Shown here: piece after piece, positions 377 to 36,811 of the stretch | Layout of the letters: each line of letters opens with the position of its first letter | Numbering within the stretch: position 1 is the stretch's first letter | Origin: Massalongia carnosa | Lineage: Eukaryota | Direction: 5' to 3' | NCBI GenBank assembly: GCA_965645245.1 | Contig: OZ287083.1 | Coordinates: forward strand, 1,860,001 to 1,896,811 | DNA length: 36,811 nucleotides | Position numbers and translations under genes: made by a program | Notes under the pieces: generated by a model | The model's input: the letters and a program-made list of their open reading frames with translations, nothing else | Told to the model about the DNA's origin: nothing | Databases searched by the model: none

Positions 377-2320
377 TTATTTGTCCGATGAAATGCCCTG
401 CAGTTTGGGGTAATTGTCAGCGATTTTCCCAAATAGTACTGGGGACAACCAATCTACTAAGAAGTTTTCTTTGGTCGACAGCCAGTGTAGCTCGATTTCA
501 ATATCATTTATAGCCGCCATCATAGCGATATTCCGAAGAGGGTGCATGGCCCCTCCTCGAATGGAGGTCTTTATGACCCCGGACATTACAGCGAAGCTGT
601 CGCAATAGAGAAGAAGATAGGCTCCCTTGCATAGGGGGAGCCACAGCGGTATAGCGTGCAAGATCGCTGTCATATCCTTCTCATTGATATGTTTGGCTCT
701 GAGCCTAGTGATGTATCGTTCAGACATTACTTGCTCAGCGGGCAGTGTGTGTGTGGTCTGACAACCTAATAGTATGTATGCCCCGATTCCGAAGTCCCCG
801 CTGGCATCCGTCCAGAGACGGAGCAGGGGTCTCGAAGGGCTGATGATGCATATGCCGTTCCATAATGGAAGGAAGTGATACCACCATAAAAGATCAGCTT
901 TTATGTGGGAATTGACATGAATAAATGGGCGCGCGGGCCCGATTTTGTAGTTGAAAAGACGCCGGAGAAAGGTTCTCCAGGGTACAACTACTTTGGCTGC
1001 AAAGGGGTATAACGTTCAGAAACCACTTGCTCAGCGGGCATGTGTGTGGTCTGACCACCTTGAAGTATGTATACCCCGATTCCGAAGTCCCCACTGGCAT
1101 CCGTCCAGAGACTGAGCAGGGGTCTCGAAGGGCTAATAATGTGTATGCCGTTCCATAATGGAAGGAAATGATGCCACCATAAAAGATCAGCTTTTATGTG
1201 AGAATTGTTATGCATAAATAGGCGTGCGGGCCCGATTTTGCAGTTGAAAAGGCGCCAGAGAAAGGTTCTCCCAGGAACCACTACTTTGGCTGCAAAGGGG
1301 TGGTATAACTTTCAGAAACCACTTGCTCAGCGGGCAATGTGTGTTGTCTGACCACTTTGAAGTATGTATGCCCCGATTCCAAAGTCACAACTGGCATCCG
1401 TCCAGAGACGGAGCAGGGGTCTCGAAGGGCTAATAATCTATATGCCGTTCCATAATGGAAGGAAATGATGCCACCATAAAAGATCAGCTTTTATGTGAGA
1501 ATTGTTATGCATAAATGGGCGCGCGGGCCCGATTTTGCAGTTGAAAAGGCGTCGGAGAAAATTTTTTCCGGCACCACCATTTTGGCTGCAAAGCCCAGAA
1601 ATCGCAGCAAGAGTGTCTAGCGTGTTTCTGGTTATCGTGGATTTGTTCAATGTTGTTTGGACGAAATCCTTAGCTTTCTGAAGATTTTTTGCCGGTAGTC
1701 GTGTCTGCATAAGGTGTGTGTCCAGCTTGATGCCCAGGAATTCGACTACCGTGTCTTGTTTATTTTTCTTATCGTTGATTTTAGGCCGAGGTCTGAACAA
1801 CTAATCATCATCCAGTTCAGACCTTTCGCGAATATGTCAAACAAGAAGGGAGACGTCCTGAGGCCGAATTGAAGAAAGCGTTCCATCCAGTAAACCCAGC
1901 AATCACCAATCGCTTTGCGCCACTGGAACGTCCACTGGAACGTGGCGAACGGCATCGGCTGGATCTCGTTTGATCAGTACGCAGTCCTTGCCCATTCTCT
2001 GACGCCGGCGAGGGCTTCGTCGAAAGTGATATATTCCAGAGCGCCCCATTCTTCGGGAATGAAGTCGTTCACCGAATTACCCTCGGGGTGGGAGAGGTGA
2101 TGAATACGGCGCCATCCTCTGTTTACTTTAGGGACGAGACATAAGGGGGAGCATATATATCTGGCTGGTAGGGTGGGTACCTCGGTCAATCGGTTCTTGG
2201 CCTTCTGGTCCTCGACGTCCATGGTCAGAATTTCTGGGGCCGCGTTGGCCGAGGCCAGGTTTTTGCTTAGAATGAACTGAATTATGCCGGTGTAATCAAT
2301 TTTGGCCCCGTACATGATTA
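377..2320 (-). pseudogene. DIRS-type reverse transcriptase/RNase H, fragmented
   Basis: ORFs 1974..2315, 1746..1955, 1438..1800, 988..1281 and 377..727 carry successive RT and RNase H motifs, broken by frameshifts and deletions. Confidence 0.85.
716..1595. repeat. Three tandem ~296-bp copies of the RT-linker/RNase H segment
   Basis: ACTTGCTCAGCGGGCA recurs at 729, 1025 and 1321; each unit encodes ADLLWW.HFLPLWNGI..LWTDAS.DFGIG. Confidence 0.95.
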
Positions 2321-2620
2321 CGAGACCGTGCTATCTCAGAACTGAGATTTTGGAACCGGTTTCAAGTTTTTACGATCGATACAATTCGTAAAAGGTTGTA
2401 AATTTAAAACCACGTATGCAATACAAAATTATCTATTTAATTTCAGGATTGAAATCGAAAAATTGAAAACTTTTCTTAAAATTTCTAAAACTTACGTCTT
2501 GCGAAATTAGCGGAAAATGTCACACTTGATGACCCGGACGATAAATTTTTGATAACACAATAAACTGCTCTCTATTTTGCAATTGAATACATTTTCTAAG
2601 TGACATGATACCCTATATCA

Positions 2621-5450
2621 TCATAAACTTACAGCAGGATTCGTAGGAACATGAGTTATCATGTCATGTTGCGATCGCAGAATAACTTCCGGATATACAA
2701 TGTTATCCGTTTTCCAGTCATTTCGTTCCGGAAACAACATACACAATCGAGACACATCTATAACTCGAGATAATGCCACATATAACTGACCATGAGTAAA
2801 AGGAGGAGCTCGCAAATCGACTCCTATCGTGTCCAATGATTGACCTTGCGACTTGTTGACAGTCATAGCAAAGCACAATCGTATCGGAAATTGTTTGCGA
2901 CTTATGATCCAGGGCAACTCGCCTTCCGTGGTATTAAGAAGAATCCGGGGAATTAATCGCGTTTCACCGTTGAATTCTTATCCCAAAATCTTTCCCTCTA
3001 GACAGGTCCGCGAAATGTGAGTAAGACGTAATCGGGTGCCGTTACAGAGACCAAGTTTGGGATACAAATTCCGCAAAAAAATGATTCGGGCTCCAAGGTT
3101 CAGTTGCAATTGTGAAGGTGGTATAGACGATGTTTGCAAGGGTTGTAAAAACTCGGGAGGAAGAAAGTCTCCTCGTGCCTGCGCCGTATCGTTCTCTATT
3201 TGATCAACAGAGTTCAAGGTGTGCGAACCGCCCTGCAATTTATTCAGTACTGCACCGTTTAACTCCGCGACGATATCGTTCCGCAAAGTCAAAATTGCTC
3301 GACTTGCGAAAGAATCCGCATCCAGATGAGCTTGCCGCAGTCGATCGGAAGGAAAAACGGTGTCCACGAAACTGTCTAAGTTGTTCAGTTGATTGACTTG
3401 TTCCGGTAGCTGAACACGACCGGAAAAAGCAGGATCATAAGACATTTTCCCGATCCAGTCCGCAAACGCCTCATTGGCGACTTCGTTACGAATTCGCATG
3501 ATTTGACGCAAAAACAGTTTTTGAAATCGCGGCCACAGAAGGTGTTTTGAATGTTCGCCACAACGATGGCTTCCCGATTTCCACGGGGAACAACGGGCAA
3601 GATTTGAGCGAAATCTCCGCTTAACACCATCGGAATAACTCCAAAAGGTCGTCATTACCTAAAAGGTCCGGAAAAGTGCGATGTACGGCCATGAAGCATT
3701 GTTTGTGTTGCATCGGCACCTTTTCCCCAATGATTAAGGCTGTGCGTTGCAAAAGACAGTGTAAATGCGTGTTGCGGGTGATATTACACATGCTGTCCTC
3801 ATTTAAATTCAAAGGAATTTTCAACCAGGAATGTGAATTCTGTCCGCTAGGAAGAAGTAAAGCGCAATGCCGGAAGACGCAACGCAAAGAACGATTTTAT
3901 TCTCCGCCCGAATATCATTGCAAAGAGTCTAATATAAAAAAGTCTTACCTGTTCCTGCAGGTCCGTGAACAAAAAAATGCGCCATTCTAGGATAATCTCT
4001 AACTCCCGCAACAATGGTATCAAACAGTATTTCTGATCCGCATTCAATTGAGCATATCGTTCATTTCGTAACGTCGTTTCTTCGTTGAAATCGTAAGTCA
4101 TTTCTGTAACGGTTCGACCATGCGTGGTGCGGACGGCAGGACCTACAGCGAACAAAGCAGGAGTCCCAGTTATAGTAGAATAGAGCTTGGTCTGCGGAAT
4201 AAGTATTGTGCCTTTTGGTCGGGAGGACAGGTGGCGCAATGGTAGAAATCTATTTACTTCTCGCTTCGTCACAATTTCATTTGCGATCAACGGATTTCCA
4301 GTACTCCGACCCCAATCGTATGTAAACAGCGGCATATTCTAATCCTCTAATCGTTTTCCTAAATCCGAAAGACCTCCGTTTAACAAATAAAGGCCGTAAT
4401 CTAAATGCGGACTCATTAAATCGTCAGGAACATCAGTCATTGATCGTAATCGATGCGGTAAATTGTCATATATATCATTTGCGTATCGATTCCATAAGGC
4501 CGTAGGATCCGTAACACGACGATCATCGGTTGTGGCCGCATTCTCCCGCAAAGCCTCGCTGGCGGATTTGTAAAGCCTGATAAAGGGATTCATATTGTGC
4601 AACATCTCTGTTAAACGTTGTACAATATCGGGATCCAATTCTGTATGTTGTCGAGTACGAATCGCGGTTGCTTCGTCGGGATCGTAAAAAACAGTTGAGC
4701 AAAGCGAGGAGAATCGTCAACGGGATCCAAAGGACCTTGCAGGTGATACAGTTCTCCGGGATTTTGAAAACATACCGGTCCACGACCGTTGCGAGGAAGT
4801 CGGCGATCGGGTTTGTAGTTTACGGAGGTGAACGTCAACGTGGAATTATATTTTCGGAGGTTTTTGCGAAATGTGCGGGTTCTAATATTGTCACCAATTA
4901 ACAGTTGCCGTAAATAAGCAGGAGGAGGCTGAAACGGTGGCAACACGACACCACCTCGCTTGCAACAGGATTTGTATACTCGATCTCGTCTTCTGTCACT
5001 CTGAACAGCTTCCGTTTCCCAATGCCACGCACCGCAGTTTCTGCAATGATCTGTCATGTGTTGAAGTCGTTGTATCGCGGATTCGAAAGTGTACTGACTT
5101 TTAAATGCGGCAGGAAAGTTACGATTTGCAGCCGCATGGTCACGGGCTTCAACAGTACGGTCGCGACGACGTGTTCGACGATTTCCTCGTGACTCACGAT
5201 GATTAACAGGTGGAGAAACAGGTCTGGAACTGGCAATGGATGGAGAAATATGTCCGAAATTCGACCTTACGAAACCGCGAGCTCGGTTGTGATTGTACTG
5301 ACCCGCTTCTGCTTCGTTGAGCAGCATTTCTTCCCAAATGTTCGGATTTTCCAACTGCAAATCATTTCGATTTGGCGGGCTTGGCGAGTGGAAAGCCGAC
5401 GATACGGGAGAAACGAAATTCGCTATTGAACTGTTAGGCGAACTCTGCAA
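2621..5450 (-). pseudogene. Helitron Rep-helicase remnant: N-terminal Cys motifs and PIF1-like helicase; HUH Rep core not found
   Basis: CRNCGAWHW..CCKRG and FAQLFF N-terminal motifs; GDFAQILPVV, LRNL..GLCNGTRL, QFPIRLCFAMTVNKSQGQSL and HGQLYVALSRV helicase motifs. Apparent deletion junction near 4515. Confidence 0.9.
4105..4273. mobile_element. Solo LTR (169 bp) inside Helitron copy 1
   Basis: TGTAACG...CGTCACA termini with a perfect 5-bp TSD ATTTC (4100-4104, 4274-4278). Confidence 0.9.
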
Positions 5451-6125
5451 AGATGGAAGAGTGACAGGAGATACAATCGAACTTCTTGGAGGAGCAGGCG
5501 GACGCAGGAAAAGACTAACAGAACGTTTTCGGTGGTCGTAAGCTTAGACGAACGCGTTTTGCGGGAGGATTTTCCGGAGAATTCACTTTATTATGCGGTC
5601 TACGGAGAGAACACCATTTTCGTAACGGAATGGGAAGTCGTGAAACGATTTCTCGAGGAGAAGAGCTAAGCTGCAAAGATATAGCGGTAGTCGTTGTTGT
5701 TGTTGCGAAGAGATCAGATAATTGTTAATGCTAAACCCAATTAAGACTACGTTAAACCGAATCGAGGGTTTTCGCAGGTTTATTGAACGGACGGATTTAG
5801 CGCAGTTTTCGGGAACATCAAAACATGAAAAACGCGAACAACGACCACCTCTCGCGGCCCACAACGAACGTAAAAGAACGTAGTTTTCGCGATACAGACT
5901 GATATCAACAGGATCAGTTGATCTCCGAAGTTTGACGAAGTGAAACGGTCCGGTACGGTCGAGGCAAGAGGGGAATTTTTGGTCCTGTCCGCATGGAGGT
6001 CCTCCCCGCATTATTTGATAATTCAGTACTGTTCCGCAAGCCGCGTTCCCTTTTTCGGGTTCAATCTAACCGAATAAGGTAGTGTTGCCCAAAGTAGCAG
6101 GGGAACTCTTTCAGTACTATATAGA

Positions 6126-17048: not shown

Positions 17049-19446
17049 TCTATATTGTACTGAAGTAGTTCCCCTGCTACTTTAGGCAACACTACCTTAT
17101 TCGGTTAGATTGAACCCGAAAAAGGGAACGCGGCCTGCGGAACAGTACTGAATTATCAAATAATGCGGGGAGGACCTCCCTGCTGACAGGACCAAAAATT
17201 CCCCTCTTGCCTCGACCATACCGGACCGTTTCACTTCGTCAAACTTCGGAGATCAACTGATCCTGTTGATATCAGTCCGTATCGCGAAAACTACGTTCTT
17301 TAACGTTTGTTGTGGGCCGCGAGAGGTGGTCGTTGTTCGCGTTTTTCGTGTTTTGATGTTCCCGAAAACTGCGCTAAATCCGTCCGTTCAATAAACCTGC
17401 GAAAACCCTCAATTCGGTTTAACGAAGACTGAATTGGGTTTAGCATTAACAATTATCTGTTCTCTTCGCAACAACAGCAACGACTACCGCTATATCTTTG
17501 CAGCCTAGCTCTTCTCCTTGAGAAATCGTTTCTCGACTTCCCATTCCGTTACGACGATAGTGTTCTCTCCGTAGACCGCATAATAAATTGAATTCTCCGG
17601 AAAATCCTCCCGCAAAACGCGTTCGTCTAAGCTTACGACCACCGAAAACGTTCTGTTAGTCTTTTACTGCGTCCCCCTGCTCCTCGAAGAAGTTCGATTG
17701 TATCTCCTGTCACTCTTCCATCTTTGCAGAGTTCGCCTAACAGTTTAATAACGAATTCCGTTTCTCCCGTATCTACGGCTTTCCACTCGCAAAGCCCGCC
17801 AAATCGAAATGATTTGCAGTTGGAAAATCGGAACATTTGGGAAGAAATGCTGCTCAACGAAGCAGAAGCGGGTCAGTACAATCACAACCGAACTCGCGGT
17901 TTCGTAAGGTCGAGTTTCGGACATATTTCTCCATCCATTGCGAGTTCTAGACCTTTTTCTCCACCGTTAATCATCGTGAGTCACGAGGAAATCGTCCCCC
18001 GCAACACGCATTTACACTGTCTTTTGTAACGCACAGCCTTAATCATTGGGGATGAGGTGCCGATGCAACACAAACAATGCTTCATGGCCGTACATCGCAC
18101 TTTTACGGACCTTTTGGGTAATGACGACCTTTCGGAGTTATTCCGATGGTGTTAGGCGGAGATTTCGCTCAAATCTTGGACGTTGTTCCCCGTGGAAATC
18201 GTGAAGCCATCGTTGCAGCGAACATTTAAAACACCTTCTATGGCCGCGATTTCAAAAACTGTTTTTGAGTCAAATCATGCGAATTCGTAATGAAGTCGCC
18301 AATGAGGCGTTTGCGGACTGGATCGGGAAAATGTCTTATGATCCTGCTTTTTCCGGTCGTGATCAGCTACCGGAACAAGTTAATCAACTGAACAACTTAG
18401 ACAATTTCGTGGACACCGTTTTTCCTTCCGATCGTATGCGGCAAGCTTATCTGCATGCGGATTCTTTCGCAAGTGGAGCAATTTTGACTTTGCGGAACGA
18501 TATCGTCGCGGAGTTAAACGGTGCAGTACTGAATAAATTGCAAGGCTGTTCGCACACCTTGAACTCCGTTGATCAAATAGAGAACGATACAGCGCAGGAA
18601 CGAGGAGACTTTCTTCCTCCCGAGTTTTTACAACCCTTGCAAATATCGTCTATACAACCTTCACAATTGCAATTGAAACTTGGAGCCCGAATCATTTTTT
18701 TGCGGAATTTGTATCCCAAACCTGGTCTCTGTAACGGCACCCGATTACGTCTTACTCACATTTCGCGGACCTGTCTAGAGGGAAAGATTTTGGGATAAGA
18801 ATTTAACGGTGAAACGCGATTAATTCCCCGGATACTTCTTAATACCACGGAAGGCGAGTTGCCCTAGATCATAAGTCGCAAACAATTTCCGATACGATTG
18901 TGCTTTGCTATGACTGTCAACAAGTCGCAAGGTCAATCATTGGATACGATAGGAGTCGATTTGCGAGCTCCTTCTTTTACTCATGGTCAATTAAATGTGG
19001 TATTATCTCGAGTTATGGATGTGTCTCGATTGTGTATGTTGTTTCCGGAACGAAATGACTGGAAAACGGATAACATTGTATATCCGGAAGTAATTCTGCG
19101 AGCGCAACATGACATGAGAACTCATGTTCCTCCGAATCCTGCTGTAAGTTTATGATGATATAGGGTATCATGTCACTTAGAAAATCTATTCAATTGCAAA
19201 ATAGACAGCAAGTTTATTGTGTTGTCAAAAATTTATCGTCCGGGTCATCAAGTGTGACATTTTCCGCTAATTTCGCAAGTCGTAAGTTTTAGAATTAAAA
19301 GAAATTTTTCGATTTCAATCCTGAAATTAAATAGATAATTTTGTATTGCATACGTGGTTTTAAATTTACAACCTTTTACGAATTGTATCGATTGTAAAAA
19401 CTTGAAACCGGTTCCAAAATCTCAGTTCTGAGATGGCACGGTCTCG
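17049..19446 (+). mobile_element. Helitron copy 2 (2.4 kb, larger internal deletion), retaining the helicase C-terminal half
   Basis: Starts TCTATATTGTACTG; hairpin 19419-19434; ends CTCG. T|T junction, no TSD. ORFs 17724.., 18265.. and 18898.. closely match copy 1. Deletion junction ~17995. Confidence 0.92.
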
Positions 19447-22400
19447 TCAACCACTACTGGCGGTGGTGGTTCGTTAATCTGGCCTGGAAGTGGGTCGTCG
19501 GAGGCCTTCCGGAGTAGGCTGGTGTGGAAGACATCATGGATTTTCATTGACGGTGGGAGTTCCAATTGGCAGTAAGATTCTACTAGTTTCTTGACTCTGT
19601 AGGGACCAATAACTTTGTGATCCAGCTTTTTGGCGGTACGCTCCGTCTTGATGTTCTCTGTGGATAGCCACACCATGTCTCCTTCGCTGTACGAGACTTC
19701 AGTTCAATGCCGGTCTGCCGCTATTGCTTGTCGTTCTTGGGATTTCTTCATGCTTTGTTGTACAAAGTCCCATACCTTTTTCATGTCGTCAGTAATGGCT
19801 CTGGCTTTTTCGTTGGCTAGTCTTTCCCTAGTGGAGTCTGCGGAAAGCTCGGTCGGATCGAAGCTCATTCTTGGCTCATACCCTTTGGTGGCCATGAACG
19901 GTGAAAGCCCTGTAGCGGCTGAGGGTGCGTTGTTGGCAGCGAACTCGGCCATTGGAAGCAGGTCCGTCTAGTCATCCTGGCTGTAGTTCACAAAACTCCG
20001 GAGGTGACGCTCCATTTCCTGATTCGCGATTTCGCTTTGTCCGTCTGTTTCTGGGTGATAGGCTGTTGACAGTTTTGCTGTAATATCGAGAATTGTGCAC
20101 CAGGCCTTCCATACTGCTGAGACGAACTGCGGTCCTCGATCGGATAGCATGCTGTTCGGGAGTCTATGAGAGCGCCATACATTGTCGATAAGGAGTTTCG
20201 CTGCGGCCTCTGCTATTGTGCCTTCCTCGCTCCATGTGCACGGGATATAATGTCTTTCCTTTGACATCCGGTCCACTACCATCAGGATAGCGTCATTTCC
20301 TTTGCTTTTCGGGAGTCCGGTCACATAGTCGAGGGTGATATCCTTCCATGGTCTCTCTGGGATGAGCAGTGGCTTCAGTAGTCCATTGTACTTGTCCCGA
20401 GGTGCTTTTGCGCGCCGGCAAACATGACAGTTTCGTACATAGCTATGGATGTCCTTGTTCATGTTTGGCCAATAGTAATTTCGGGAGACTATCTGACTAG
20501 TCCTGGCGATTCCGGGGTGTCCTACTGCTATTTGGTCGTGTATTATCGGAACGACTTCTAGGATCGTTTCTTTCTTTTTCGGGACCTATAAGCGCTTTTG
20601 CTTATATAACAGTCCGTTTTCTACGATGCAATTCTTTATGTCGGGTAACGAGTCGTCGGTGGTGTCGGTTCTTTCTATGGCTTTCCTGATTCTGGTGCAA
20701 AGTTCATCTTCCATGTTTTCCTGTTTTATTCGTTCGTCCAGGGTCGGTGGGTCCTGGTCGGGGGTTTCTTCTGATTTCGTTGCTTCCGGTTCCGTTGCTT
20801 CTTCGATTGGTTGAAGTTCAAATCTTTCAGGGGGTAACAGTGTCTGCAGCTGGTGTTGCTGCCTTTCGTCATCATCGTCCTGGGATTTGTCATTTGATCT
20901 TCGAGTCAGGGCGTCCGCTTTCTCATTCTACTTTCCGGGTCGATATGTAATGACAAAATTGAACTCTGAGAGGAACTCCGCCCAGCGAGCTTGTCGTCTA
21001 TTTAGTTTCTTAGTTGACATGCAATATTCTAGACTTCGGTGATCGGTGAAGATCTTCACTGGCAAGTCCGTACTTTCCAGTTCGGGTTTCCATTGCTCGA
21101 ACCAGCGAATTATCGCTAGCAGTTCCTTGTCGTATATTTCGTAATTACACTCGGCCGGGCTCATGTTTTTCGAAAAGAAAGCCACCGGGTGTAACTCTCC
21201 GTCGTCACCCATCTGGGAGAGCACGCCGCCATTGACATGATCTGATGAGTCCGTTTCCAGATAGCATTGTTTGTTCCGATCGAAATGTATCAGGATTGGG
21301 GCTTCTCCAATCGTTTCTGTAGAGTTCGAAAAGCTATTTCACATGCGGGGGTCCATTTGAATATTCGTTCTTTCTTTGTCAACGCATTCAGCGGTTTGGC
21401 GATCTTGGAAAAACCTCTGATGAACCGGCGATAGAAATTGCAAAAACCAATGAACGAACGAACCTCCCGTAGGCAGGTCGGAATTTCCCATTCCTGAATG
21501 GCCTTGACTTTGGCGGGGTCCATACGAATGCCATCAACATCGATATTCAGTCCCAGATATTTCGTTTCTGTCAAGTGAAACTCGCATTTGTCCACGTCCG
21601 CTTGGATTCCTGCTTCTCGAAGTCTTGATAGAACGGCCCGTACATGCTCCCGATGTTCTTTCAGATTCTTGCTATAAATTAAGATGTCGTCTAGGTAAGC
21701 CGTGCAGAACTTGTCCAGATATTCAAACAACACGTCATTGATAAAGTGCTGCCAGGTCGATGGTCCTCCGGAGAGTCCAAACGGTAATACCTTGTATTTA
21801 TAGGCACCGAAACGGGAGTTAAACGTGGTCAAATCTTCAGATTCCATAGCCATACGGAGTTTGTGAAACGCTTGTCGGATATCGATTTTCGAAAAGATCT
21901 TTGCCTCCTTCAGCTGGGCCAGCGTTTCTCCTATCAGGGGAATTGGATAGCGGTCTTTCTTTGACAACTGGTTCAACCGTCGATAATCGACACAAAAGCG
22001 AAGTCCTCCATTAGGCTTCCTGGCTAGAAGAATCGGGGACGAGCAAGCAGCGTGACTGGCCTCGATAATGTCACGGTACTGCCTCGCTAGCACCCGAATC
22101 GAGTCACGGCGCTAAGGCTTGAATGATAAGCGAGGGCTAGGCTCAGCATGGTTAGCGAGATCAACGGAAAGATTATATCTTTGCTTTCGCTGTTGAGATT
22201 TTCTTTCTTCCTTGTCGAACGTCTTGTAAATATCCGATAGCCTACATATAGCAAAGACTTCGTACCACCTGATCTTATCTCATTGAGTCCTTCTCGTCAC
22301 AGAGAAACCCCTTTCGAAGGTTGTCCTCGAGGTATTTCTTGACGAATTCGAGCTCTCTTTGCGACATTCTCCTAAGTGGGCTATGCCCGTGATCTTTTCC

Positions 22401-31135: not shown

Positions 31136-31330
31136 TCGGTTTTCCCTACGTTTTCCCGTTATCTTATCAGGGTTTTAGGGTTTTTCATCGATCTCGAGAG
31201 TTCGGTTTTCCCTTAGTTCTCCCGTTGTCTTATTAGGGTTTTAGGGTTTTTCATCGATCTCGACAAGTCAGTTTTCCTCCTCAGTTCCCACTGGGTTAGG
31301 AGGTTTTTCATTGACTTCGGAGGCCGGTTT
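31136..31330. repeat. 66-bp tandem repeats in the gypsy C 3' UTR, containing TTAGGG motifs
   Basis: CCCGTT.TCTTAT.AGGGTTTTAGGGTTTTTCATCGATCTCGA at 31155 and 31221, plus a degenerate third unit. Confidence 0.88.
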
Positions 31331-33394: not shown

Positions 33395-35357
33395 ATGAGC
33401 GCCCGTTTTGTCTATCTGCCGGAATGGCGGGTGCTGGTGTGCGAAGCGTGAGGCTTTGGCCTCCGTCCCGGTCGCGGCGTTTGGGTTCGGCACCTGAGGC
33501 AAGCACCGCATTGCTTGAAGGGCCCCGAGCTCCGGGCCCAGGTCGAGCTGTTCGAGAGCTACGACCTCTGCGCGCCGGAGCCGTAGCTCGCGCAGCTGCC
33601 GGCCCACGCGATCCCCGGATTACGGCTCCTCGATGGTTTCCAGTGCTTGACCTGCGCGGCTGGTCTTACCCAAAGCCTCCAAGCTATCTGTTGCGGAGGC
33701 TACGGATCATAGGGGTGGAAGTAGGAAACAACAGCAACAAGCACGTGCGATGATCAAGCTGATCCAATGGCAGGCTACTAATGATTGATTGAAAATGACT
33801 GAGGCTATCTACGGGGGCATATAGCCCATTATATACCGCTGCCTGCCTTGAGCACGATTCTCCCACTTTCTATGTGATCGGTCAGTCAAATGCTGATATG
33901 TAAGCTCGTCTTTGTCGGAGTTCCAAAGCTGACATATTTGCCTCATTATCAATCCACTGTAGAATGTTCGAATGTCTCCTAGAATATCAGACGCGGGATG
34001 TTGATGATAAATCCCAAGGTGGCCAATCTAAATACTTCCAATAGCTAGTGCGCATTGGGGTTAGTGCCATTTTCTATAAGCAGACATCTCGGCTATCCTC
34101 AACACTATCGAACGGCACGTGTCAAAAGCCCACCAGCTCAAGCCTGCATGGCATCAGAAGAACCCCCTCTGGCGGTCGAGCAAACTCCAGACTTTCTTTG
34201 CCGAGAATCGCTTAGTTTGGTATGTTGTGGTAGAGGATGAGGGAAGAGCAGAGGCGCCAGGGAGCTCCGGATACAGGAGCGCCGATAGCTTGGGTTCAGG
34301 GGACGAAGACTTCTTTAAGCTGCTCGACCAGGACGCCGCTGTTGTAGAGGAGGATGCTAAGGCAGAGGCCAACATTGTTCATGGCTTCGATGGCCACCGA
34401 TCCGCTGTGGTGCCGTGGCTGAGACGGACGGGCATCGAGGAGCACACGCGGGGCTTAAAGAAGGACGAGATGGACGCCTCTTTTGCAGTACCGAAGGCTG
34501 CCGAGAGCGAGCCCGAGCTGTTCCTGATGCTAGAGGTGATGGACGAGATCTTTATAGAGGCGCACAGCTGGTGCTTCGATGGCCCCGACTGCATGCTGAC
34601 CTGGCCACGGCAGCTGGCGTTGAGCCGCTTCCATACTGCCGCTGCCCCAGGGCAGAAGACGCGCGCGTTCGACCCGAAGAAGGAGCCTAATACGCTCAAG
34701 ACCAACTTCGGCTACTGGAAGCAGTTCTTGACCTACAGCTACCGGGTGGCCCACAGGAGCAACCACTTCACCGCGGCCGACAGCGACCAGCGGACCCCCG
34801 AGAGCCATATCCAGCTCACGTGTGCTCAGGAGAAAGCGCGGGAAGTGGCTTTCCAAAGTGCCGTCGATCAAGACGGGCCTGCGCTGAGAAAGGCCATGTC
34901 GGTGCTCTCAATAGCGCTGATCTGCCACGAATTTGGAGGCAATCGGTACAGCTCCTCACTGCTCAGCTTCTGCGCCATGCTCAGCGTCAAGCCACACACC
35001 AAGACTTGGAAGGAGCCGGGCAATTACAATAGCTGCTTGTCTGGCGTAATCTGGATTGTGCAGCTAGTCATCTTCCACGCCAGCGCCTGTCTGGAGAAGG
35101 CGGAGCTAGGTGATACACTAAAGCGCATTGAGCAGTATTGCGGGCAGTTCTTGAAGCAGGACACCGAGACTCGTATGGGCGAGATCCTCGGCTGGCGCTT
35201 GCTGCTGTTTACTGTCTCGAAAGAGGTTGTTGGGCCGCACCAAGCACAGTGGGATGTGGCCGAGAAGGTCCTGACCTACCAAGACGTTGATTTGCATATG
35301 GATCACGTGCCGCGGCTCTTACTCTCCGAGTTCCAGCAAGCCCAGCACCTACTCTAG
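33395..35357 (+). pseudogene. DUF3505-type (C2H2-like) protein resembling the N-terminal part of fungal telomere-linked RecQ helicase genes; LTR-interrupted and 3'-truncated
   Basis: MSARFVYLPEWRVLVCEA*GFGLRP..HLRQAPH, IPGLRLLDGFQCLTC..ERHVSKAH, LQTFF, PWLRRTG, YSSSLLSFCAMLSV, YNSCLSGVIW. No helicase domain in the window. GC-richer than its neighbours. Confidence 0.65.
33689..34104. mobile_element. Solo LTR (416 bp) in the DUF3505-like gene
   Basis: TGTTG...CAACA termini, perfect TSD CTATC (33684-33688, 34105-34109); removal restores QAIERHVSKAH. Confidence 0.92.
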
Positions 35358-35500
35358 GGTTAGGGTTAGGGTTAGGGTTAGGGTTAGGGTTAGGGTTAGG
35401 GTTAGGGTTAGGGTTAGGGTTAGGGTTAGGGTTAGGGTTAGGGTTAGGGTTAGGGTTAGGGTTAGGGTTAGGGTTAGGGTTAGGGTTAGGGTTAGGGTTA
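35355..35500 (+). repeat. Interstitial telomeric tract TAGGG(TTAGGG)23TTA
   Basis: 146 bp of perfect TTAGGG repeats, G-rich strand on +. Confidence 0.99.
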
Positions 35501-36811
35501 TGGGCGATCTGGCCAATCCTCGAGTCGTCAATCCCATGATCAAACCTCGAGACATCTACAATCTCAAGGCTCAACTTCGTCGCGAGGCTTTGGGACCGTT
35601 GACTCCCATACAGGCATTGATTCGAGAGCTTGATCAGAGCGACGATTGGTTGTATCAAATGCAAAAGAATGAGGAGGATCGCAATCAGATAACTCATTTA
35701 TTCTTTGTAAAAGGAAGTTCCCGAACTTTTTTAAAGTCCAACTATGAGGTTCTGATCATGGATTGCACTTATAAAACCAATCGCTACAAATGCCTCTTCT
35801 GATCATCAGCGGTCAAACCGCATTGCATACCATTTTCTATGTGGCTTTTTGCTTCATGGCCAGTGAGACAAAATTTGACTACACCTGGGTTTTGAGGCAA
35901 GTCAAAGCTCTATATTTGCAAATGGAGCTTCCAGATCCGACCGTCATTGTCACCGACATGGAAAGAAGTCTGATGCTTGCTCTTCGTGCGCAATTTCCTC
36001 GTACCAATCATCTGCTTTGCATTTGGCATATCAATAAGAATGTCGTCGCCAATTGCAAAAGACAATTCAGCAAGGAAGAAGAATATCTAGCTACCACCTA
36101 CATTACTCATGTTCAGCATTTCGTAAGATGCTTTACCAATCGAGTACTGCATTTTGACACCACCACTACTTCTCGAGGTGAGGGAGGGCATGCAGTGATC
36201 AAACGTCAATTAGGAACGTCGACCGGAGATCTGAAAACGGTGGTGGACGGAATCAGTCTTTATTGATGAACGAGTATCATAACTATTGGATCAAATTGAA
36301 TGAGGACAAAACGCGATATCTGCTAGATCTTCGGAAATCAATTTTTCAGCAAATATCTCCATTCATCAGTACTAAGGCAATCAGAAGAATTAATTCTCAG
36401 TACGATTTACTGACCGGGAGACCGACGGCTCTGCCAGCATGTACGAATTCTTTTACAACCAGCACCGGACTGCCTTGCAGTCATAGAATTCAGGAAAGAT
36501 TGTATGGCGAAGGAAGTTTATTGCTGGAAGACGTTCATCCACATTGGAGATTTGAAAGAAACGCTCCCGCCAATGATTTCAATCTGCTGATAGTGGAAGA
36601 ACCAGACATTATTCGACCTCATGGACGACCTTCGGGAGCGGAAAACAGAAGAACTCAAGCTTTCAATGCCTCTACGGGTCGACAACCTTCTCAATTCGAG
36701 CGAGTTATTATGGAGACGGCAGAAGATGAAGAGGTGCCAGCGGATGTGGAACGGGTCATTCGTCGGGCGGATCCAGCCCCGAAAAGGGCGCGAGGCAGAA
36801 GAGCTCGAGCT
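35501..36811 (+). pseudogene. Mutator-like (MULE) transposase, 5'-truncated, frameshifted, internally deleted
   Basis: RDIYN, LIMDCTYKTNRY.MPLL, VIVTDME, HLLCIWHINKNV, TTSRGEGGH, C..FT.STGLPCSH (SWIM-like). Confidence 0.92.

Follow-up and report, generated by a model that had tools for sequence, protein, structure and literature searches.

Why does a tract of perfect telomere repeats stand inside a contig, between the remains of two genes? This question is raised by a window of 36,811 nucleotides (the whole stretch of DNA that we analysed; contig OZ287083.1, positions 1,860,001 to 1,896,811, of the Massalongia carnosa assembly GCA_965645245.1), in which a (TTAGGG)n tract of 146 bp (35355..35500, + strand) directly follows a truncated gene that resembles telomere-linked helicase (TLH) genes and is itself followed by a fragment of the transposase of a Mutator-like element (MULE). 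We give a probability of roughly 0.45 to the reading that, in a Helotiales-like fungus, a healed chromosome end with a truncated helicase gene took up an internal piece of an active MULE, so that its native-length telomere became internal; a few bases would have been copied from the same end by template switching.

The G-rich strand of the tract runs 5'-3' away from the helicase gene. Tandem Repeats Finder reported an array at 35355-35500 with a period of 6, 24.3 copies, 100% matches and zero indels, in agreement with the perfect 146-bp tract claimed by an initial annotation of this DNA. It is the single telomere-type array of the whole window, and the 12-mer TTAGGGTTAGGG, for which 0.00 matches were expected from 100 shuffles, was found 22 times, always within these limits. 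The length of the tract is that of a native fungal telomere. By searching the window we found no direct repeat, target-site duplication (TSD) or terminal inverted repeat (TIR) bracketing it, and self-BLAST revealed no similarity between the left flank, the right flank and the rest of the window; the earlier statements that a TSD is absent and that the two flanks are unrelated were thus borne out at this scale.

The gene on the left stops exactly where the repeats begin. Its frame at 34080-35357 is open over 425 codons from stop to stop and over 412 codons from a GTG at 34119, and it closes with the TAG at 35355-35357, the first bases of the tract, just as had been said of a 412-aa open reading frame ended by the first TAG of the repeats. 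When relatives of the gene were aligned with the window (78-88% DNA identity), we observed that eight out of eight read on past the breakpoint, with ...CACCTACTC TAC GAC GAG CTG...; where they have CAC CTA CTC TAC GAC GAG CTG ATG, the window has CAC CTA CTC TA and passes into GGGTTAGGG. Their helicase gene extends about 920 codons beyond this point, and by BLASTN homology stops at 35356 in most of the closest loci. On the helicase side homology therefore reaches 35356 and leaves a microhomology of 2 nt, the TA at 35355..35356 (+ strand), which is common to the repeat and to the Tyr codon TAC of the eight relatives. Such an overlap is expected if telomerase primed on TA.

Since all eight relatives read through and homology stops at 35356, de novo telomere addition is well supported, and we consider that a terminal truncation followed by such an addition very probably took place here. 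The continuation of the relatives past the breakpoint also agrees with what the initial annotation had proposed, namely a break inside the gene that was healed by telomerase, with the G-rich strand outward and TA as a possible seed. The abrupt switch to perfect repeats, the TA overlap and the outward G-rich strand are those of de novo telomere addition. At its left junction the tract does not differ in any way from an ordinary healed end, but such an end is normally terminal whereas 1.3 kb follow the tract in the window.

The repeats could in principle have another origin, as an insertion made by telomerase at an internal double-strand break or as the remnant of a retroelement of the MoTeR/FoTeR type. 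Interstitial telomeres of the insertion type have been found in other eukaryotes. According to the passages cited here from PMC8381367, MoTeR and FoTeR elements are associated with internal telomere repeats. In no relative, however, do the two flanks adjoin, the helicase gene continuing there for its remaining codons; the right flank is an unrelated DNA transposon; and no reverse transcriptase adjoins the tract, the nearest one belonging to a Ty3/gypsy element whose end lies about 4 kb upstream. We regard this origin as refuted for practical purposes.

Which gene was cut? The frame 34080-35357 itself has no Pfam match, and phmmer returned 439 matches to it from 1.84 billion representatives. 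The frame aligns to residues ~90-536 of long homologues (1238-1747 aa), and when ten of these were scanned an OrsD/C2H2-like domain (PF12013) was present at the N-terminus of nine, and DEAD and/or Helicase_C domains in all ten. The closest full-length relative, P0304 (1439 aa), is 81% identical over 425 aa, aligned at its residues 89-512, and the best PDB matches of its core (residues 876-1195) are RecQ5, BLM, RecQ1, WRN and bacterial RecQ. The closest named proteins are from Helotiales (Cadophora, 87%; Tricladium, 84%; Mollisia), and the source labels of the relatives read only 'superfamily II DNA helicase RecQ' or hypothetical. In the part of 10.1101/2024.02.27.582403 used here, fungal TLH proteins are described with N-terminal C2H2 motifs, a conserved middle domain and a RecQ core. 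Two features of this family, the N-terminal C2H2-type motifs and the RecQ-type core, are present among the homologues, and the designation of the cut gene as telomere-linked-helicase-like rests on architecture and position, set against named TLH proteins by description only.

Three segments of this gene can be followed in the window. Its N-terminal C2H2/OrsD-type part lies at 33395..33688 (+ strand; residues 1-98 of P0304, by tblastn of P0304, P0306, P0001 and P0002) and contains two in-frame stops. It is followed by a stretch of about 390-420 bp (33689..34079 by a DNA alignment and by BLASTN coordinates, with no strand assigned) that is absent in the homologous loci L001 and L006, and which is either an insertion or a copy-specific intron. 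The middle part, similar to the 'TLH-domain', then covers 34080..35356 (+ strand), that is, residues 89-512 of P0304 and two bases of the next Tyr codon. In all, the N-terminal 36% of the gene is retained, up to residue 512 of about 1439, and the RecQ-type core is wholly absent. The gene family shares with the TLH genes (M. oryzae TLH1, F. oxysporum TLH, S. pombe tlh1/2, yeast Y'-Help1) the C2H2-type motifs, a conserved pre-helicase domain and a RecQ-type core, as well as being multi-copy and the last gene before the telomere; unlike them, the window copy is a pseudogene without a helicase core.

Two minor observations concern this gene. The stretch of about 390-420 bp has an alignment to residues 89-98 of P0304 on either side, possibly a duplication that an insertion left behind. 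Furthermore, P0001 ends near the last residue of the frame, and we considered it as a possible telomere-capped copy; this candidate was dropped, as a translated telomere repeat was present in none of 150 proteins.

Where does this gene family reside in other genomes? Metagenome contigs were scanned with an alignment of six sequences, which yielded 63 loci, the gene being set on the + strand in each. A (TTAGGG)n tract of at least 3 units was detected in three of these loci, in all cases on the strand of the gene and at the 3' end of the contig, with the same polarity relative to the gene as in the window; the remaining 60, many of them on short contigs, have no tract of this size, and an internal array was found in none of the 63 metagenome loci. 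In L002, which is 88% identical to the window at the DNA level, the full gene ends at about 3984 and the telomere starts at 6034, 2.0 kb past the gene. L008 has an intact gene that ends at about 4511 and a telomere from 7378, 2.9 kb past the gene. The gene of L037 breaks off near residue 600 and passes directly into a short GTGA-like run and the telomere. Truncated, re-capped copies of the helicase gene occur in nature. As the gene of the relatives points at a terminal G-strand tract, the arrangement in the window is that of a native chromosome end.

These loci have two further peculiarities. A (GTGA)n microsatellite directly precedes the TTAGGG repeats at 5990-6033 in L002, at 7290-7365 in L008 and at 2270-2300 in the truncated copy of L037; it is absent at the healed end of the window. 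In addition, L001 (14-4351 and 4803-9098) and L003 (2981-7249 and 7442-11626) each contain two helicase paralogues arranged head to tail on the same strand, one P0039-like and one P0016-like.

The same loci bear on the idea that the tract belongs to a mobile or amplifying unit, either a helicase-containing subtelomeric block with bordering telomere repeats or a MULE that carries telomere repeats. The helicase regions of F. oxysporum, full or truncated, have telomere repeats on both sides and occur in arrays, as far as the cited portion of 10.1101/2024.02.27.582403 describes them, and the tandem paralogues of L001 and L003 could be seen in the same light. In the window, however, no telomere repeat was found upstream of the helicase gene. 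The initial annotation had itself raised the case of other copies routinely carrying the tract: on the helicase side, none of the eight aligned relatives, which all read through the break, carries it at this position and none of the 63 loci has it internally, and on the MULE side a copy from public sequencing runs extends 437 bases upstream of the junction in one contig (run X1) without starting in repeats, while the MULE protein P0151 has 253 more codons upstream. This reading is largely refuted, and we judge it very improbable. Both a tract-carrying element and an insertion fail because the helicase gene continues in the relatives and the tract is internal in none of the 63 loci.

On its right side the tract is followed, after five junction bases, by a 5'-truncated MULE transposase fragment (35506..36811, + strand), which spans codon 254 of P0151 (194 of P0153) to about codon 651 of P0153, is spread over three frames and runs off the window. 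Pfam detected in this flank the MULE domain PF10551 (E = 4.4e-21) and also PF21056. P0151 (391 aa) shares 98% protein identity with the flank and is aligned from residue 254; P0153 (707 aa) was aligned by tblastn from residue 194 to about 651. The first ~250 codons and the 5' end of the transposon are missing, no TIR or TSD of the MULE was found around the tract, and the 3' end of the transposon lies beyond the window. The description of this flank as a headless MULE without TIR was accurate.

To what extent is this fragment a copy of its own? We searched public runs with 33800-36811 and compared four of them over 35435-36811, the positions 35435-35508 being masked; these runs consist of contigs built with k=31, which cannot cross the tract. 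The word shares of the best runs were 0.59, 0.59, 0.56 and 0.48, a lichen metagenome reached 0.35, and the runs X2-X13, with 0.05-0.10, are outside the four-run comparison. All contigs of the four runs match the window from 35511 on and are about 99.5% identical to it. Over 35511-36811 we counted three substitutions, two 1-nt deletions and one in-frame deletion of 111 nt, the same in all contigs: the window is missing an A after 35787, a T after 36258 and the 111 bp between 36080 and 36081, and the additional A and T of the public copy restore the reading frame. Upstream of the junction the public copy continues, the 437 bases mentioned above being carried by a 1867-nt contig of X1. The strain of the window is not among the four compared runs. 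Moreover, an exact 26-mer from the start of the MULE fragment gave no match in the metagenome contigs, so that the window and close copies of its MULE are not in that contig collection.

Judged by its sequence, the fragment belongs to a young and abundant MULE, of which it is a private copy with slight damage. The neighbours of the tract had been called decayed, which does not apply to this one: with three substitutions and three deletions relative to the public copy, it is not old. The recency that had been deduced from the flawless tract is likewise a weak argument, as about 8 changes per 1311 bp predict only about 0.9 in 146 bp. The idea that the 111 bp are an intron, and the fragment a retrocopy, was rejected, since they consist of 37 in-frame codons (WDTFFAEWKA...YEVV) and have no GT..AG ends. 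We also noted that the word depth of the intact-frame MULE ranges from 1800 to about 48000 in X15 and X17, which are small data sets, and is 470 in the run of a 167-Mb lichen metagenome. These depths suggest that the family is very abundant or strongly transcribed, and it is probably active.

The bases that join the tract to the MULE are TGGGC (35501..35505, + strand). They may be read either as the Trp-Asp codons of the MULE less 1 nt or as a copy of 35176-35180 in the left flank; at this place P0151 has WDDPANP and the window MGDLANP. The 9-mer TATGGGCGA occurs in the window only at 35174-35182, in the helicase fragment, and at 35499-35507, across the junction, the two being 325 nt apart on the same strand, with an expected count of 0.24 per window. 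TGGGC may thus result from a short template switch from the same chromosome end; the duplication of TATGGGCGA may be the footprint of such a switch or a matter of chance. No adapter-like filler interrupts the junction between the tract and the MULE, which is seamless.

Is the telomere really internal? We give an even chance to the tract being a truly internal, native-length 'telomere relic' near a chromosome end. The principal competitor, to which we attribute somewhat less than even odds, is that the tract is a true terminal telomere and the healed break real, the 1311-bp MULE tail being an assembly artefact produced either by a ligation-chimeric long read or by a de Bruijn path leading through a telomere-repeat loop into another locus. 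On the whole, a misassembly is about as likely as an internalised telomere.

Several facts weigh against an internal telomere. Its internal position rests on the 1311 bp of MULE at the end of the window, and the tract is spanned by none of the public contigs, which are unable to cross it. Contigs of X15, X1 and X14 extend 7, 16 and 49 nt, respectively, past the end of the window, so that 36811 is probably a contig end, lying 1.3 kb from the tract. In the window no 141-mer is repeated, and 146 bp (141+5) is exactly the longest period-6 tract without such a repeat; the length of the tract, and perhaps the join as well, may therefore be a product of the assembler. In one common metagenome assembler, 141 is the largest k used by default. 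Deletions make up about half of the differences in the MULE fragment; two of these deletions shorten homopolymers (AAAA to AAA and TTTT to TTT) and shift the frame, a pattern that fits low-coverage long-read error too, in contrast to the other open frames of the window, about 4.5 kb, which are unbroken. In the four compared runs we found neither the window's own MULE copy nor a joint for the 111-bp deletion. The argument drawn from TATGGGCGA is post hoc, with p ~0.01 by simple arithmetic. Lastly, the gene, its orientation and the tract length match a native chromosome end, telomeres beside this gene family are terminal in three and internal in none of the 63 loci, and internal arrays of more than 4 units are described as extremely rare in P. 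oryzae in the cited passages of PMC8381367.

An artefact does not account well for all observations, however. The junction is seamless, and the two technical clues imply different technologies: a k of 141 points to short reads, homopolymer deletions to long reads, so that at least one of them must be a coincidence. A de Bruijn contig needs covered k-mers over the right junction, which means that a real junction between a tract and a MULE would exist somewhere. The clean 111-bp deletion is atypical of read error, and the junction 9-mer TATGGGCGA is repeated 325 nt upstream. A real junction is further favoured by the 111-bp deletion, which is private to this MULE fragment and marks it as a distinct copy. 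The distal flank is also present elsewhere, as MULE copies in the four public runs, as is the case for captured or duplicated sequence.

The most likely course of events is as follows. A chromosome end of a Helotiales-like ascomycete very probably lost its tip by a break or by erosion inside its terminal helicase-like gene; the gene was truncated after codon 512 of about 1439, and telomerase healed the end, primed on the TA of the next codon. As the likeliest sequel, to which we give even odds, the healed telomere would then have become attached to a piece of a young, multi-copy MULE, either through end-joining or through copying in the course of repairing a deprotected end; TGGGC may have had its template in the same helicase fragment, 325 nt upstream.

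Such structures have been described in Pyricularia oryzae by Rahnama et al. 2021 (PMC8381367), from which the following statements are taken within the limits of the passages cited. The telomere relics to which the initial annotation had referred are indeed described there, as internalised former telomeres; a telomere that has failed is repaired when it captures, by duplication, other sequence that is mostly subterminal. At internal sites, arrays of more than 4 units are extremely rare, except in foxtail strains: US71 has eight internal arrays of 6 to 34 units, four of which, with 22-34 units, are of native length, and Arcadia2 has one of 23 units. According to MinION reads, internal arrays break and get re-healed. 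The window resembles these relics in that a former telomere of canonical TTAGGG repeats, near a chromosome end, precedes sequence present elsewhere, that its 24 units fall within the native range of 22-34, and that a telomere-linked helicase gene is located at the affected end. It differs in the fungal class (the closest named proteins being those of Helotiales), in the captured piece, which is an internal MULE fragment and not a subtelomeric tandem repeat or a MoTeR, and in that the internal position is seen here in the assembled sequence, whereas MinION reads were aligned in that study. The TLH regions of F. oxysporum, as given in the cited portion of 10.1101/2024.02.27.582403, also combine a truncated helicase-containing region with a non-terminal telomere repeat; there, one or a few repeat units stand on both sides of a repeated block, whereas here a single native-length tract stands on the distal side only.

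What would an internal telomere mean for such a genome? The tract itself probably has no useful function. By analogy with Pyricularia, in which internal tracts often break and re-heal and drive subtelomere turnover (cited passages of PMC8381367), it would be a fragile site, subject to breakage and renewed healing. If truly internal, it would be a rare case, from outside the blast fungus, of an interstitial telomere of native length. It would mark a natural fragile site, an unstable chromosome end and a recent episode in which telomeres failed in another fungal class, and would point to episodic telomere failure beyond Pyricularia and Fusarium, chromosome ends being patched with transposon DNA. 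As native-length internal telomeres are already known in Pyricularia, the novelty lies at best in another fungal class and in the capture of a MULE fragment. Should the tail be an artefact, the locus would be an ordinary truncated and healed chromosome end and a warning that contigs may overrun telomeres. In either case, the helicase family, being terminal in uncultured relatives, provides a chromosome-end marker for assemblies of Leotiomycetes.

The rest of the window consists of transposon debris, with three Ty3/gypsy elements, copia gag fragments and two inverted Pif1-2B (Helitron-like) fragments, which fits a subterminal region. Within it we observed inverted duplicates that are 95.5% identical (2320-3781 versus 17995-19447, and 5177-6125 versus 17049-17996) and carry the fragments of the Pif1 2B domain of a Helitron-like helicase. 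A unit of 293 bp is present three times at 717-1593, with 89% matches. Finally, a 66-bp tandem duplication with the motifs TTAGGGTT and AGGGTTTT is located at 31136-31277, just beyond the 3' end of a Ty3/gypsy element.

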